Shown here in pieces: positions 8,003 to 39,419 of a stretch of DNA of 64,000 nucleotides. The notes under the pieces were generated by a model. The model searched no databases and was not told the origin of the DNA. It worked only from the letters and a program-made list of their open reading frames with translations. Position 1 is the stretch's first letter; every line of letters begins with the position of its first letter. This stretch comes from a virus. Made by a program: the position numbers and the translations under genes. The stretch covers positions 1-64,000 of IMG/VR virus record IMGVR_UViG_3300032241_000811; one strand, 5' to 3'.

Positions 8003-9178
8003 TCAATCTTCTCCAATCTCATTATAATGTACGTCTGACAAGAAAGCATCCTTGACCTTCTGATAAGAACGCTTGCTACCACAGTTCTTCTTGACACTAT
8101 CTACAATCAACTGATACGCATCGGACCAATCAAGGTCTTTTTCCCAGAGACGGAACACCATGCCACGCCACATTGGATCTACGCTACCCCCACTGTTAAT
8201 AGCGTAGTCTTTCTTGGTTCCAGCGCTCTTGGCCAGAGTCCAGGCAGTCAAAAGAGTCTCAGCCTTTTCAGTCAATTCCAAAAGCATCTCATTGCGGAAC
8301 TTTTCTATCTTATTCACATCATCCTTTGGCAGAACAGGCAACAAGTCATCCAACTCATTGTTCAGAATGAGAGACACGACATCACGCTCCTGCCCCAACA
8401 GAGCCTTGACTTTGTGAATACGCACATACCAGTCTGACTTGATCTTGAACATGTGTCCGTCATCAAAGCGGACAACGACACCCTCTTCACCTTCATGATT
8501 GCGAACGAGATCAATGATCACGTTGATGTCAAGGGATTTAGTTTTGATTGCCTTGACGACTTCGATGCCGTAACGCTCTCCGATGTTCTCTAGCGCATCT
8601 TGTAACAAATAGTTGCCAGAATGATTGACACGCATTGCAGTCAGAACAAGACGATCTTCTGGATAGTTCAGAACGATGCGGTTCTTGTTGGAACACCATT
8701 CAAACACGGGAGTGAACCCATTCTTCAAATAGCGTTCAGCAAGTTCAGTATAATCGGGCCGAGAAGCAACAAAAGCTTCAGCTTCCATGCTGGTGTCGGT
8801 GATGCCCATCTTGGTCATCCAACGGATATGGCCATTCACATAGCACGGGCTGACCATAGAGCCGTCCAGCTTCTCCAAAATCATGTGAGGCTTGTTCAAA
8901 TTGATGTTGGTCAGAGAGGTCTCGTCTCGCTCATTCACATTGAAAAACTTGTGATAGCGTCGATTGATCAGCTTGCCTTCCGTGTCAAATACAAGACCTC
9001 GGCACTCACGGCGAATGGCCGTTTTTATGTCATCAACTGGAGGAAAAGTCGTCTCATTCATCACCACATAGTTGATCACGGTATAGCCATCCTTGGCTAC
9101 CACGACGAACTCTGGTGAACCCTCAATATGTGGAAGGACATCGCTGATATGCGAGATGAATGGAAAAGAATAGTTCAT
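8003..9178 (-). CDS. rnlA: RNA ligase 1
   Basis: RECRGL, KFFN, EKLDGS, FEW, EGVV, KIKS motifs. Confidence 0.92.
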   Translation of the reverse strand: MNYSFPFISHISDVLPHIEGSPEFVVVAKDGYTVINYVVMNETTFPPVDDIKTAIRRECRGLVFDTEGKLINRRYHKFFNVNERDETSLTNINLNKPHMILEKLDGSMVSPCYVNGHIRWMTKMGITDTSMEAEAFVASRPDYTELAERYLKNGFTPVFEWCSNKNRIVLNYPEDRLVLTAMRVNHSGNYLLQDALENIGERYGIEVVKAIKTKSLDINVIIDLVRNHEGEEGVVVRFDDGHMFKIKSDWYVRIHKVKALLGQERDVVSLILNNELDDLLPVLPKDDVNKIEKFRNEMLLELTEKAETLLTAWTLAKSAGTKKDYAINSGGSVDPMWRGMVFRLWEKDLDWSDAYQLIVDSVKKNCGSKRSYQKVKDAFLSDVHYNEIGED

Positions 9179-13700: not shown

Positions 13701-14321
13701 TCAGTTGTTATTCGTGTCCAGCTTATGTTTACATTTGGTTCCATGCCACCTTTTATAATTGCCAGGTGTTGTTATAAAACTACAATATTCACACATATAC
13801 GTTTTCTTATTGATGTGATCGAACCCGCCTTTTTTACCGTAGTTTGGATTTTTTGCGCCTAGTTTTCCTTTACGAATGTTTTCTTTAGCTAAAACGGACT
13901 TTTTTATTCCTTTAGACTTTTTTCCAAATTCCACAAAGCGCAATCGTCTATCCTCAGTTAGATTCTTTTTATGGTTGATGTTTAGTTCACCCATTTTCAT
14001 CTTTGACATTTTTTCTCTAGTGGCTTTTGTGTGATGTTTTAGAAAAAACTTTCCGTTGCCGTTGTGTTGGTTATAGAAATCCTCATTTATTCTAGCATCA
14101 ACACCCCTAAGGATACTAACTTCGAGTTTTCTTATATCCTCAAAGGATTCTTCGGCTATGATCTGTCGAGTAAAATCTTCGGGTCTTTTGTAGTATTCTT
14201 CCAACATATACTTTGAAGAACAAATATATCCATCATCTGCCGTTCCTTTATGGGAACCAACATAAAGTTTTCCTTTTTTATGGTCTGTCCAACAATAAAC
14301 GAAAGAACTATTAGTTATCAT
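13701..14321 (-). CDS. GIY-YIG homing endonuclease
   Basis: FVYCWTD...LYVGSHKG..DDGYICSS; NUMOD3-like and Zn-finger C-terminus; AT-rich. Confidence 0.85.
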   Translation of the reverse strand: MITNSSFVYCWTDHKKGKLYVGSHKGTADDGYICSSKYMLEEYYKRPEDFTRQIIAEESFEDIRKLEVSILRGVDARINEDFYNQHNGNGKFFLKHHTKATREKMSKMKMGELNINHKKNLTEDRRLRFVEFGKKSKGIKKSVLAKENIRKGKLGAKNPNYGKKGGFDHINKKTYMCEYCSFITTPGNYKRWHGTKCKHKLDTNNN

Positions 14322-28406: not shown

Positions 28407-29507
28407 TTAGACTATACCATATGTGGAACGTCTGATTGACTCTGAAACAATACCTTTTATAGAATCAACGACCTTGTTGCCATCCAAGTTTTCTGAGTGT
28501 GAACCATCAAAATCTTTGGCTATACGCATCAGTTCAAGTATAGGCAAGTCAACTCTGATCGTATTACTCTTGCCATTCTTGTCATCATTATAGTCTGCAA
28601 GCCAGCGGTGGTGCCCATCCAGAATGTAGTCGTCATTGGAAATAATGATCTTTGCGGCATTTGCCTTGCTATTCAAACTGGACATCATATTCATCACCTT
28701 ATCAAGATTGAACTCCATCTGAGTAGCCTTCAAGTCCTTTGATGATACTTTCTCATTATTATAGCTGATGTTCTGTTTCTTCAAGTGATCTAGAAACGCT
28801 GGTATCTGCTCTTTGCGTATCTGCGGCATCAGTGAACGACCAAATGTCATGCCGATCTTTGGCACTTCAATTGATTCATTCATGTTGTTCTTATACTTGG
28901 TGACCTTGCCATCAGTGACAAGATAGCCTATTGCTTCAATCTTGGGAAACATCTTAGCTACTTTGAATAGCATATTGAGGTTCTCTTCGCTGTCATCCCA
29001 CATACGAACCCTGTCAAACTTTCCAGACGACATGTATCTCTTGAGGATAATCCCCTTATTTACGCTTGCCTTTGAATTGGGATTGTATTTTATTATATTA
29101 CCTGCTCGCTCAACATAGACATGATCTATGGGAAATCCATAGTCACGAAAAGTTTGGAGGAACTCTTCTTTATCCTTGAAGTCTGATCTTGCTGTCAGAA
29201 TGATTGACTTTGAGTTTTCAGATTGGTTCCATACAATCTCTTTAGCCCTGTCTAATACACTGTTTATTGGCTTTGCAGTTTCACGAAATACTTTACCAGA
29301 ACGAAACTCTGAAAAGTCAAATGACTCGCCAGGCTTCAAATTATATGTATTGTATGCACCAGGCTCAAGCTTCTTGACTTGCTTGCCATCTTTCTTGACG
29401 ATCACACGCGCATCTGTGGTGAACAGGGTGTCATCAATATCCCAGACATTCAGGGTTCTCACCTCATTGGTGTGCGACTTCACATATGATTTGAGTGTAG
29501 TTACCAA
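28407..29507 (-). CDS. HAD phosphatase + ParB/Srx-like fusion
   Basis: WDIDDTLF, ILTAR, WDDSEEN; second domain with R..MPQI, ATQ and ILDGHHRW. Confidence 0.75.
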   Translation of the reverse strand: MVTTLKSYVKSHTNEVRTLNVWDIDDTLFTTDARVIVKKDGKQVKKLEPGAYNTYNLKPGESFDFSEFRSGKVFRETAKPINSVLDRAKEIVWNQSENSKSIILTARSDFKDKEEFLQTFRDYGFPIDHVYVERAGNIIKYNPNSKASVNKGIILKRYMSSGKFDRVRMWDDSEENLNMLFKVAKMFPKIEAIGYLVTDGKVTKYKNNMNESIEVPKIGMTFGRSLMPQIRKEQIPAFLDHLKKQNISYNNEKVSSKDLKATQMEFNLDKVMNMMSSLNSKANAAKIIISNDDYILDGHHRWLADYNDDKNGKSNTIRVDLPILELMRIAKDFDGSHSENLDGNKVVDSIKGIVSESIRRSTYGIV

Positions 29508-37272: not shown

Positions 37273-37336
37273 TTTCTTCTTCCGAAAAAAACAATGTAGT
37301 TCTATTTATGGCATGACCAAACCCTTGATTTTTTAA

Positions 37337-37428
37337 TGGCGCGCCAGACAGGATTCGAACCTGCATCGGACATATAATCCACTCCAGTTACCTTTGTTCG
37401 CGTTCGTAGCGCGAGGGGATACTAACGC
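37337..37428 (-). tRNA. tRNA-like RNA, anticodon ACG, no D arm, expanded variable region
   Basis: acceptor GCGTTAG/CTGGCGC; T arm GCAGG TTCGAAT CCTGT; CCA. Confidence 0.65.
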
Positions 37429-37432
37429 ATAT

Positions 37433-37507
37433 TGGAGGAGCAAACAGGAATTGAACCTGTATTGAGGGATTTGCAGTCCCTTGCATCAGCCATTCTGCCA
37501 TTGCTCC
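37433..37507 (-). tRNA. tRNA-Cys(GCA), copy 1
   Basis: loop CTGCAAA; U73; CCA. Confidence 0.9.
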
Positions 37508-37512
37508 GTTAT

Positions 37513-37587
37513 TGGCGACCCAAGTAGGACTCAAACCCACATCTCTTCGCTTTAGAGGCGACTGCATAATCACTCTGCCATTGGGTC
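37513..37587 (-). tRNA. amber suppressor tRNA (CTA)
   Basis: GACCCAA/TTGGGTC stem; loop CTCTAAA; GCCA. Confidence 0.8.
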
Positions 37588-37908
37588 ATAATTCTATTTA
37601 TGGTTGTTAATGATTAACAATTCATTATTTCTATAGCAGATAATATAACGTGAATCTATCCAAGCCATATGTGGATTGTTTTTCACGTGCTCCATAATCT
37701 GATTATATGTTTCAAATTTTGGACCAGGAGCACTAAACTTAGTAAATGCCAGATATTCTTGTTTCATCATCATAACTTTAATAATGCTTTATAGAAAAAA
37801 TCATTATGATACTTGTTGAAATACAGCGTATAATAATATCCAGGTTTAATAGGTTTGTTTTCTGGATATGTAAGCCACACTTCTTCTTGATTCATATTCA
37901 TTACAAAT

Positions 37909-38139
37909 TTAATTCTTGTTATCAGTTACAGTAAAACCAAGTTCAATCAAAAAAACTCTTATCTTATCAGAAACTTCATATTCTTTATTTTGTCTATATA
38001 TATCACGAATAGCATTTAATGCCGACAATAACATTGTTATTTTATGCTTTTGATTTTCTGAATACTTAGACATTATCTGAAGTTCATTCTCTAAACGATA
38101 AATTTCATACTGTAATTCATCTTTTGTTTTGTCAGACAT
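37909..38139 (-). CDS. small protein resembling the CysRS C-terminal anticodon-binding domain
   Basis: IRDIYRQNKEYEVSDKIRVFLIELGFTVTD versus CysS pattern R..AR..KD...AD.IR..L...G..LED. Confidence 0.55.
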   Translation of the reverse strand: MSDKTKDELQYEIYRLENELQIMSKYSENQKHKITMLLSALNAIRDIYRQNKEYEVSDKIRVFLIELGFTVTDNKN

Positions 38140-38156
38140 AACAAATTCCTAAAAAA

Positions 38157-38231
38157 TGGAGGAGCAAACAGGAATTGAACCTGTATTGAGGGATTTGCAG
38201 TCCCTTGCATCAGCCATTCTGCCATTGCTCC
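38157..38231 (-). tRNA. tRNA-Cys(GCA), copy 2
   Basis: identical to 37433-37507. Confidence 0.9.
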
Positions 38232-38239
38232 GTAAACAC

Positions 38240-38401: not shown

Positions 38402-38461
38402 ATGAATTTCGCTCCGATTTCTTATAGTGGTTACGGCCTCCACTTATTTGCCTATGTTGTT

Positions 38462-38893: not shown

Positions 38894-39271
38894 TTATTGT
38901 GAAAGTCTCTTTGCTTTAGCTTCTGCTGAGACTGACTCAAATAGGTTCATGTTGTCATGGACTCTCTTGACATCTTCTTCTACATTTGGATTGTAGTCTT
39001 TGAAGTTGTCGCCGTGACCGAGCAAGAGATGGCACTCTTTGTCCATGCACAAAGTAATAAGATTTGTTGGTTCAAGTTCTAATTCAGGAAACAAGTGGAA
39101 CGGCTTCTTGTGATGCACATTCAGCTTCTTGTCTGAACCGCAGCAAGCACATACTGGTTGTTCTTTTAGGTGTGCGTGTTCTACTGCTGGCCAATGAGGG
39201 CTGCGCGGCTTTTCAATGCCTGCTGCATCGTCTCTGTTGGCTGCGACTGATAAATCTTTCTTCTGTGTCAT
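38894..39271 (-). CDS. HNH endonuclease
   Basis: CACCG..LNVHH..P...NLITLC...CH...GH; TAAATA hairpin at 39275-39302. Confidence 0.85.
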   Translation of the reverse strand: MTQKKDLSVAANRDDAAGIEKPRSPHWPAVEHAHLKEQPVCACCGSDKKLNVHHKKPFHLFPELELEPTNLITLCMDKECHLLLGHGDNFKDYNPNVEEDVKRVHDNMNLFESVSAEAKAKRLSQ

Positions 39272-39307
39272 ATCAATACTCCTTGGTTGACGGAGTATTT
39301 ATGAAAT

Positions 39308-39352
39308 TGGTACTAGCGGGTGGGATCGAACCACCTACCACACGGTTATCAG
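39308..39352 (-). pseudogene. 3' half of tRNA-Ile(GAT)
   Basis: CTGATAA loop, T arm, ACCA; 5' half absent. Confidence 0.75.
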
Positions 39353-39419
39353 TTTGATGTTTACCTATGTAGAATTTTTGATTTATTTTGTTAGTAATAT
39401 GATAGATAGTGTAGAACAT
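39345..39419 (-). pseudogene. N-terminal fragment of a GIY-YIG endonuclease
   Basis: MFYTIYHITNKINQKFYIGKHQTDN, similar to the start of 35715. Confidence 0.8.

Follow-up and report, generated by a model that had tools for sequence, protein, structure and literature searches.

Single domains of aminoacyl-tRNA synthetases can exist as independent small proteins. Trbp111/CsaA, AlaX, YbaK/ProX and YadB are such free-standing synthetase-derived domains with tRNA-binding or editing roles, and are cellular proteins that mostly bind tRNA non-specifically or edit the aminoacyl end. The present report concerns ORF76, the 76-residue product of an open reading frame (ORF) located in a phage tRNA array, which like them consists of a single synthetase domain and is considered to be a putative free-standing tRNA-binding domain belonging to an uncharacterised, recurrent phage group already labelled in the databases. 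By contrast with the cellular examples, ORF76 is viral and, as judged from its sequence, derived from an anticodon-specific reader, namely the C-terminal domain of cysteinyl-tRNA synthetase (CysRS), which binds the anticodon in the structure of the E. coli complex. It was identified in the window, i.e. the whole 64,000-nt stretch of DNA analysed here, which represents the first 64 kb of the 109,580-bp IMG/VR virus record IMGVR_UViG_3300032241_000811, a metagenome-assembled sequence estimated to be 63% complete (CheckV). In this window, two identical copies of a tRNA-Cys gene bracket ORF76, two other small ORFs and an amber-suppressor tRNA.

The CysRS C-terminal domain (PF23493, the end of TIGR00435, 6ujd and 8qhp), annotated by Pfam as the anticodon-binding part of the enzyme (CysS_C), is the closest described relative of ORF76. 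The two are alike in their profiles and invariant residues, and ORF76 keeps the order helix, K-x-Y/W loop, helix and G-x-x-x-x-D. Unlike CysRS, ORF76 lacks the Rossmann, CP, SC-fold and helical-bundle domains and ends before the G..W hairpin, the helix upstream of its core is modelled as a coiled coil in a homodimer, and its gene belongs to a phage and is located in a tRNA array. The tRNA arrays of phages are currently interpreted for the most part as a response to host defences that cleave or deplete tRNAs (PMC10264068, PMC11555353). The known phage responses are spare tRNAs with altered loops, and RNA repair. The tRNA region of T4 is exchanged between related phages via endonuclease-stimulated recombination involving the SegB homing endonuclease (PMC2330249); the present locus resembles it in having a tRNA array strewn with HNH and GIY-YIG genes or remnants, where break repair involving co-infecting phages reshuffles the tRNA neighbourhoods, and differs from it in that no endonuclease gene lies inside the insert. 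A suppressor tRNA with the anticodon CUA, as found here, is also a feature of stop-codon-recoded phages (bioRxiv 10.1101/2021.08.26.457843; PMC10879173), whereas TAG recoding is not seen in this phage.

The locus is delimited by an exact direct repeat of 77 nt (37433-37509 and 38157-38233, 100% identity, 724 nt from start to start), in which each unit comprises a whole 75-nt tRNA-Cys gene, with U73 and CCA encoded, plus the 2 nt 5' of the tRNA. The chance origin of such a repeat within 64 kb is effectively impossible. ARAGORN places tRNA-Cys(GCA) at 37433-37507 and 38157-38231 and the CUA tRNA at 37513-37587, all on the minus strand, and their scores against the Rfam tRNA model are 64.7, 64.7 and 52.1 bits, respectively (gathering score 29). 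The 647 bp between the tRNA-Cys copies hold the suppressor tRNA along with ORF76, ORF43 and ORF59, all on the minus strand, and the GC content of the ORF block is 25-31% as against 41.3% for the genome. The original prediction, which was made from the letters alone, had described two identical 77-bp tRNA-Cys copies around some 650 bp of mostly AT-rich DNA with three small ORFs and a tRNA with the anticodon CTA, and is confirmed by these results. The order of transcription is tRNA-Cys copy 2, ORF76, ORF43, ORF59, CUA tRNA and tRNA-Cys copy 1, and the features are as follows.

38157..38233, minus strand: tRNA-Cys(GCA) copy 2 plus 2 nt, the upstream repeat arm, 8 nt after tRNA-Thr(TGT)
37909..38139, minus strand: ORF76, a stand-alone homologue of the CysRS C-terminal anticodon-binding domain by profile homology and models
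37770..37901, minus strand: ORF43, an orphan small ORF and putative gene
37594..37773, minus strand: ORF59, an orphan small ORF, with its stop codon 6 nt before the suppressor tRNA
37513..37587, minus strand: amber-suppressor tRNA with anticodon CUA (ARAGORN, Rfam)
37433..37509, minus strand: tRNA-Cys(GCA) copy 1 plus 2 nt, the downstream repeat arm, which keeps the ancestral downstream neighbours
37337..37428, minus strand: conserved tRNA-like RNA, which marks the ancestral downstream flank of tRNA-Cys (Rfam, relatives)

The ATG of ORF76 lies 17 nt past the CCA end of tRNA-Cys copy 2 and is preceded, at 7 nt, by AGGA; the earlier description of ORF76 as lying just downstream of this copy holds in the direction of minus-strand transcription and is otherwise a slip of wording. 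The ATG of ORF59 overlaps the stop codon of ORF43 (ATGA), the CUA tRNA begins 6 nt past ORF59 and tRNA-Cys copy 1 follows after another 5 nt. A scan of the insert revealed no terminators, and sigma-70-like sites were no commoner in it than expected by chance. No relative of ORF43 was found among 5.8 billion proteins and no relatives were found for ORF59, neither of which matched any family.

The ancestry of ORF76 as a homologue of the CysRS C-terminal anticodon-binding domain is solid by several sequence comparisons. An unbiased hidden Markov model (HMM) was built from the last 85 residues of 21 CysRS proteins taken from genomes drawn evenly across Bacteroidota, and was searched against 1,208 sequences comprising 1,204 six-frame phage ORFs of at least 40 residues and the ORF76 homologues. 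ORF76 ranked first (E-value 2.4e-10, 36.3 bits) with the next phage ORF at an E-value of 0.025, and four ORF76 homologues were retrieved by the same HMM with E-values of 4e-10 to 4e-8. The best match in NCBIfam was TIGR00435 cysS (E-value 0.005), with residues 5-76 of ORF76 aligned to positions 383-459 of the 466 in the profile, and the top match of a single-sequence search of the PDB was a CysRS, at an E-value (0.098) that makes it a hint only. A phmmer search of 1.84 billion representatives identified three small homologues of 75-93 residues, 37-49% identical to ORF76, and two long repeat proteins that themselves match Pfam CysS_C at 1e-16 to 1e-17. When a four-sequence profile of the family was compared with the PDB, the CysRS chains 6ujd_A (1e-5) and 8qhp_A (3.6e-5) occupied ranks one and two, both alignments falling on the last ~70 residues of CysRS. 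A search of PHROGs with ORF76 returned nothing useful.

On the evidence of four homologues at 36-49% identity, with conservation over the full length, the ORF76 family is a real gene family. Residues ~26-75 of ORF76 form the CysS_C-like core, and the positions that are invariant or nearly so in CysRS within the covered segment are all kept (R45, R49, K52, S57, D58, I60, R61, L64, G68 and D73). The motif R..(A)R..K.(W/Y/F)..(S/A)D.IR..L...G....D, including Y54, is shared by ORF76 with all, or almost all, of its homologues. The likeness to CysRS had originally been read from a single peptide, which is present as quoted, as are the two D-arm strings quoted for the tRNAs; it is now borne out by the CysRS HMM, the comparison of the family profile with the PDB, the NCBIfam cysS match and the invariant residues. 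R49 presumably corresponds to R427 of E. coli CysRS, an equivalence that is treated as a lead only. R427 has been named as a residue of the anticodon domain (bioRxiv 10.1101/2025.02.14.638259).

A role of ORF76 as a synthetase was rejected, as it has no catalytic domain, which in the enzyme is a class I Rossmann domain with HIGH and KMSKS motifs, is 76 residues long against ~460 for the enzyme and scores 15.9 bits with TIGR00435 against a cut-off of 340; upstream, the ORF is bounded by a tRNA gene at a distance of 17 nt. Two relatives of ORF76 carry the name 'cysteinyl-tRNA synthetase' in IMG or GenBank, and in the case of the ~77-residue P0007 the IMG name is misleading.

The AlphaFold 2 (AF2) model of ORF76 generated with an alignment consists of a helix at residues 6-50 and another at residues 54-66, with a predicted local distance difference test (pLDDT) value of 88, compared with 75 for the model generated without an alignment. 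Searches of the PDB by Foldseek with both models and of 48,161 representatives by VIA-align (Z up to 7) yielded generic helical hairpins and no CysRS; because the models are composed of a long helix and a short helix, these fold searches say nothing for or against a CysRS fold. A lone helix of 45 residues, as modelled here, is unlikely to stand by itself. The homodimer model scored 0.59 as against 0.04 for the best of three controls, a mark attained, among proteins of solved structure, by 20 of 30 one-chain pairs and 1 of 23 single chains, although these benchmark counts hold only roughly, as a self-made alignment was used for ORF76. The homodimer runs agree in at least 95% of the contacts, the pLDDT of the partners is at least 84 and the modelled interface is a parallel coiled coil formed by residues 6-44. 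Modelling thus supports ORF76 as a parallel coiled-coil homodimer, which, if the model is right, would be a stalk bearing both of its reader heads at the same end.

Stand-alone CysS_C mini-proteins, as recognised by their sequences, recur in several phage lineages and are mostly located away from tRNA-Cys. The close family was found in tRNA arrays in both of the two cases that could be judged, and beside tRNA-Cys once. The other case is P0007 (JGI/IMG), whose called GTG start lies inside a tRNA-Phe(GAA) gene, so that its residues 1-13 are the translated T arm and acceptor end, i.e. the 3' half, of tRNA-Phe (12 of 13 identical); its true start is probably Met17, ~13 nt behind the tRNA-Phe gene. 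P0003, P0004, P0007 and P0008 were not found in the scanned viral, metagenome and genome collections. More distant are an ORF of 92 residues, adjacent to a primase-like gene, in the 180-kb phage IMGVR_UViG_3300032893_000002 and a 95-residue ORF among the nucleotide-metabolism genes of MW202615.1 (GenBank name 'cysteinyl-tRNA synthetase'), which score 21 and 28 bits, respectively, on the CysRS C-terminal HMM. The 180-kb phage has three matches to the tRNA model, one of them below the cut-off, and ARAGORN calls only a tRNA-Thr in it. The other phage mini-proteins share with ORF76 the core K-N/Q-Y-E-V-S-D-x-I/L-R, a small size, the absence of a catalytic domain and an occurrence in tailed phages; they differ in having a Cys-rich N-terminus or a C-terminal tail, in having no coiled coil and in not lying beside tRNA genes. 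The linkage of homologues to tRNA genes is mixed, being seen with P0007 and not with the two distant mini-proteins. ESM Atlas clusters contain further CysS_C proteins of 61-64 residues, partly viral, with scores of 0.86-0.87, which are regarded as a lead only. P0005 and P0006, the long repeat proteins from Logan assemblies, are 450-470 residues in length and contain four or five tandem CysS_C-like repeats joined by proline/alanine-rich linkers; they look eukaryotic, and their architecture suggests that the domain may be used as a repeated RNA-binding module.

The origin of the insert was examined by comparison with the relatives found, which are three near-identical IMG/VR contigs (G001-G003) representing one comparator lineage. 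A scan with the DPBB protein detected no closer relatives, and a scan with the tRNA-like RNA detected the same three contigs only. The arrays of the relatives have 28 tRNAs with a single tRNA-Cys (89% identical) and are without ORF76, ORF43 and ORF59. Downstream of tRNA-Cys, copy 1 and the relatives alike have the tRNA-like RNA, the DPBB gene, a 65-residue ORF (ORF65) and tRNA-Ser(TGA). Copy 2 is flanked by tRNA-Thr(TGT) and, further upstream, by tRNA-His, which lies upstream in the relatives too.

The tRNA-like RNA begins 4 nt past tRNA-Cys copy 1. It lacks a D arm and is composed of an acceptor stem of 7 bp, a T arm, a discriminator, CCA, a 5-bp hairpin with the loop CUACGAA (ACG at the anticodon position) and an insert of ~30 nt with a second hairpin. 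It is 81% conserved with respect to L010:10452-10535 of the relatives, compensatory changes being found in both the acceptor stem and the first hairpin, and its score of 27.6 bits with the Rfam tRNA model is just below the gathering score. It is reminiscent of two stable RNAs, C and D, from the tRNA region of T4. A tRNA-like gene of 82 nt, to which ARAGORN assigns the two-base anticodon 'tc', was also observed in the relatives between tRNA-Glu and tRNA-Met (L010:8772-8853, and likewise L011 and L012).

Judged against the relatives, the three AT-rich ORFs are a lineage-specific addition. A recombinational insertion or duplication at tRNA-Cys is supported by these comparisons, because the relatives lack the three ORFs as well as a second tRNA-Cys, and because the GC content of the ORF block is low. 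The gain of a cassette by recombination at tRNA-Cys, as originally proposed, fits the relatives and the low GC content insofar as the ORFs are concerned and does not extend to the suppressor, which is not foreign (see below). A 724-bp unit consisting of tRNA-Cys, ORF76, ORF43, ORF59 and the suppressor would have become linked to the tRNA-Cys already in place when tRNA genes underwent ectopic homologous recombination, leaving behind two identical tRNA-Cys genes as 77-nt direct repeats. The repeat unit coincides with the tRNA gene. This route is taken to be the simplest, and we infer that the recombining partners may have been tRNA genes (Cys or suppressor) in genomes that differed in gene order and were either co-infecting or concatemeric. 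The locus would then be a clean example of tRNA genes serving as portable homology for the shuffling of accessory genes in T4-like genomes, and in a phage proficient in recombination the two 77-nt repeats should also permit renewed loss of the insert.

Two other types of mobile element were rejected. An integrase-type element is not consistent with insert ORFs of 43-76 residues without any integrase match, nor with the duplication of the whole tRNA plus 2 nt instead of its 3' part. A homing-endonuclease cassette would require an HNH, GIY-YIG or LAGLIDADG gene between the repeats, where none is present. Classical homing leaves no duplicated target.

The duplication could also be an artefact, in which an assembly path through the 77-nt repeat joined two co-existing variants, one running from tRNA-Thr through tRNA-Cys into ORF76 and the other from the suppressor through tRNA-Cys into the tRNA-like RNA. 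The record is assembled from a metagenome and incomplete, and the repeat is shorter than many assembly k-mers. Such a path could form only if all four junctions exist in the reads, and ORF76 and ORF59 have each been recorded from two contigs of two sources, so that this explanation is very unlikely; even if it were right, the ORF76 gene and its place behind tRNA-Cys would stand.

With regard to function, ORF76 descends from the last ~70 residues of a cellular CysRS and has lost the whole catalytic body. The invariant arginines, lysine and aspartates of the anticodon-binding domain are kept, and the helix preceding the domain would have been turned into a dimerising coiled coil. In the favoured reading, ORF76 is a dimer that most likely acts in trans by binding tRNA-Cys, of the host or of the phage, at its GCA anticodon loop, and would hold or protect this tRNA during infection rather than charge it. 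Taken as a whole, i.e. a recombinational insertion together with ORF76 as a dimeric, trans-acting binder that holds or protects tRNA-Cys, this explanation is offered tentatively, with the chances of its being right placed slightly below even. Binding of tRNA-Cys by ORF76 is in itself likely, and the ligand has most likely been kept because a family at 36-49% identity retains every invariant charged residue. Such a binder might shield the tRNA, sequester it, compete with the host CysRS or recruit another factor. Shielding from anticodon nucleases and altered charging, both raised in the original prediction, are conjectures; shielding is attractive because the phage carries genes for RNA repair and because phage tRNAs are viewed as a counter-defence. 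The two repair genes concerned are listed below.

8003-9178, minus strand: Rnl1-type RNA ligase (phrog_562, E-value 8.5e-78)
28407-29507, minus strand: protein with an N-terminal polynucleotide-kinase domain (phrog_415)

In T4, a pair made up of an Rnl1-type RNA ligase and a polynucleotide kinase mends tRNA cut by an anticodon nuclease. To our knowledge, no phage-defence system is aimed at tRNA-Cys.

A number of points weigh against the interpretation of ORF76 as a binder of tRNA-Cys acquired by insertion. Neither the protein nor the six-frame translation of the phage matched Pfam PF23493 CysS_C at its gathering threshold of 23 bits; this threshold is insensitive here, because bona fide CysRS of the matching subtype also fall below the cut-off, giving 19.1 bits, 14.2 bits or nothing in three genomes, and the homologue P0003 scores 15.3 bits. 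The terminal G..W beta-hairpin is absent, as the ORF76 family ends 2-4 residues past D73; some CysRS of the Flavobacteriaceae end right after the equivalent of D73, and the hairpin is not universal in working enzymes. The domain works with the helical bundle in the enzyme, so an isolated copy may bind weakly. The adjacency to tRNA-Cys could be fortuitous; by our own estimate, a slot picked at random in an array of 24 tRNAs would give it about 1 time in 12. P0007 adjoins tRNA-Phe and not tRNA-Cys, no tRNA genes were found near the 92- or the 95-residue mini-protein, and no tRNA-Cys was found in the 180-kb phage with the tRNA model or ARAGORN. As there is a single comparator lineage and the arrays are otherwise much rearranged, the direction and the route of the event are not fixed.

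Several of these points would equally be expected if the CysS_C-like fold had been repurposed for another RNA, DNA or protein ligand, for example as a small regulator or as a mimic docking on a host factor, the tRNA-Cys neighbourhood being accidental. The location of related mini-proteins beside primase-like or nucleotide-metabolism genes, the phage without a detectable tRNA-Cys, the position of P0007 behind tRNA-Phe and the loss of the terminal hairpin all agree with such a change, and the four or five tandem CysS_C repeats of the eukaryote-like proteins suggest a general-purpose module. The preservation of ten invariant or nearly invariant CysRS residues, mostly charged, at 36-49% identity fits the ancestral ligand better, and a phage tRNA-Cys would not be needed if the target were the tRNA-Cys of the host. 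On balance, repurposing is the main rival and is considered rather unlikely.

Small phage proteins can act on host synthetases, as illustrated by the vs product of T4, which modifies the host valyl-tRNA synthetase (ValRS). ORF76 might be an inhibitor that occupies the anticodon of tRNA-Cys, competes with the host CysRS and lowers charging, resulting in host shut-off or a tuning of translation, with the second tRNA-Cys compensating by dosage. The anticodon GCA and U73 are the major identity elements of tRNA-Cys (PMC9976931), hence a free reader domain would compete with CysRS for the same surface, and tRNA-Cys is doubled in exactly this phage. The GCA anticodon is common to the tRNA-Cys of phage and host, so the translation of the phage would itself suffer, and inhibition is judged improbable.

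A bolder form of the tRNA-Cys binding proposed above is that the phage CysS_C mini-proteins constitute a new class of anticodon-specific tRNA clamps, in which the dimer would mask the GCA loop from a host nuclease or modifier and the extra tRNA-Cys would be the second half of the counter-measure; only a small chance is given to this extension. If true, it would amount to a counter-defence that masks a tRNA rather than replacing or repairing it. More generally, a phage protein reduced to the anticodon-reading head of a synthetase would add a third kind of tool, which acts on one tRNA by recognition alone, and would point to tRNA-Cys as a contested molecule. As the mini-proteins are small, easily expressed and recurrent in several phage lineages, the question is directly testable.

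The amber-suppressor tRNA has the anticodon CUA in the loop CUCUAAA, G73, an encoded CCA, the T loop UUUGAGU and a D loop without GG. U is present in place of C56 in the T loop, and this feature and the GG-less D loop are common to the phage tRNA-Glu. The tRNA is predicted to be functional from its canonical cloverleaf, its score (52.1 against 29 bits), its 7-nt anticodon loop with U33 and a purine at position 37, and the compensatory changes in its stems. Its nearest neighbour by sequence in the array is tRNA-Glu (71% identity), as compared with 63-64% identity to tRNA-Cys. The likeness of its D arm to that of tRNA-Cys, noted in the original prediction, is real in that the strings are present but is not specific, as the D-arm string GGCAGAGTG occurs also in tRNA-Ser(TGA) and the overall identity is low. 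Its discriminator is G, as had been stated, and is A in the orthologue of the relatives. This orthologue is 83% identical, with paired changes in the acceptor and anticodon stems, and lies between tRNA-Gly(GCC) and tRNA-Val(TAC), two genes that are 6 nt apart in the window. Four further suppressor tRNAs with the same T arm were found on three other phage contigs, all of which are without ORF76.

From these comparisons, the suppressor is an old member of the array situated at different places in the two lineages, and the view of it as a foreign passenger of the cassette is contradicted by the orthologue in arrays of relatives that have no ORF76. The suppressor would have been brought along by the same rearrangement and would act independently of ORF76. 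A derivation of the suppressor from tRNA-Cys, or its coupling to ORF76, was rejected for want of any specific likeness or co-occurrence.

ORF76 and the suppressor could nevertheless be imagined as a functional pair, with the reader retuned to the CUA anticodon or altering the charging of the suppressor, as they are 320 bp apart in one insert and the D arms of the suppressor and tRNA-Cys are alike. This is extremely improbable: the orthologous suppressor exists in three relatives without ORF76, the suppressors that share its T arm on the three further contigs likewise occur without ORF76, the invariant residues facing the anticodon are unchanged from CysRS, the D-arm likeness is shared with tRNA-Ser(TGA) at an overall identity of 63-64%, and the discriminator of the suppressor varies between G and A. 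No functional link between the two was found in the sequence and co-occurrence comparisons.

Recoding of TAG was rejected. Non-overlapping ORFs cover 90.6% of the sequence under translation table 11, and ~17 ordinary genes stop at TAG with in-frame extensions of 0-29 codons beyond it; the single 64-codon frame that follows a TAG corresponds to the adjoining gene, which has a ribosome-binding site and an ATG of its own. Because the coverage is high and the extensions of the TAG-ended genes are short, the genome fragment is considered to use the standard code, a result that covers the genome in hand, 63% of the whole.

A 12-mer, CCATAAATAGAA, occurs exactly twice, both times in this locus on the minus strand (37592-37603 and 37300-37311), one copy being just before the suppressor tRNA and the other ~30 nt before the DPBB gene. 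It resembles the late-promoter box of T4, TATAAATA, and a third site with one mismatch is present at 13963; at least three matches were reached in 1 of 100 shuffles.

The source virus is, by sequence, a T4-like phage. Its DNA polymerase is ~52% identical to gp43 of T4-like cyanophages and marine myoviruses, and no close relatives were found among the GenBank phages by megablast. Nearly all genes are on the minus strand, as is the tRNA array, which extends over 6.6 kb (33.5-40.1 kb) and comprises 24 tRNA genes with small ORFs, an HNH gene and a GIY-YIG remnant scattered through it. The latter two lie outside the repeats.

38894-39271: HNH gene, one of the nearest endonuclease genes to the insert
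39273-39419, minus strand: GIY-YIG remnant, a 48-codon ORF with only the first ~25 residues of a homing endonuclease (phrog_314, E-value 7.8e-9)

The GIY-YIG remnant reads into a stretch (39308-39338) resembling a tRNA gene's 3' half, and it has the look of an endonuclease cassette that has decayed. Elsewhere in the array, the segment 39661-39762 (minus strand) shows 80% identity to a gene of 92 nt in the relatives (L010:5176-5277), which ARAGORN reports as tRNA-Ile(TAT). ARAGORN makes no call at this position in the window, and the segment may be a tRNA of unusual or interrupted structure. Between tRNA-His and tRNA-Asn lies a 40-nt leader (38405-38444, minus strand) that is 87.5% identical to L010:13288-13327, just upstream of tRNA-Ser(TGA), and this conserved leader thus precedes different tRNAs in the two lineages.

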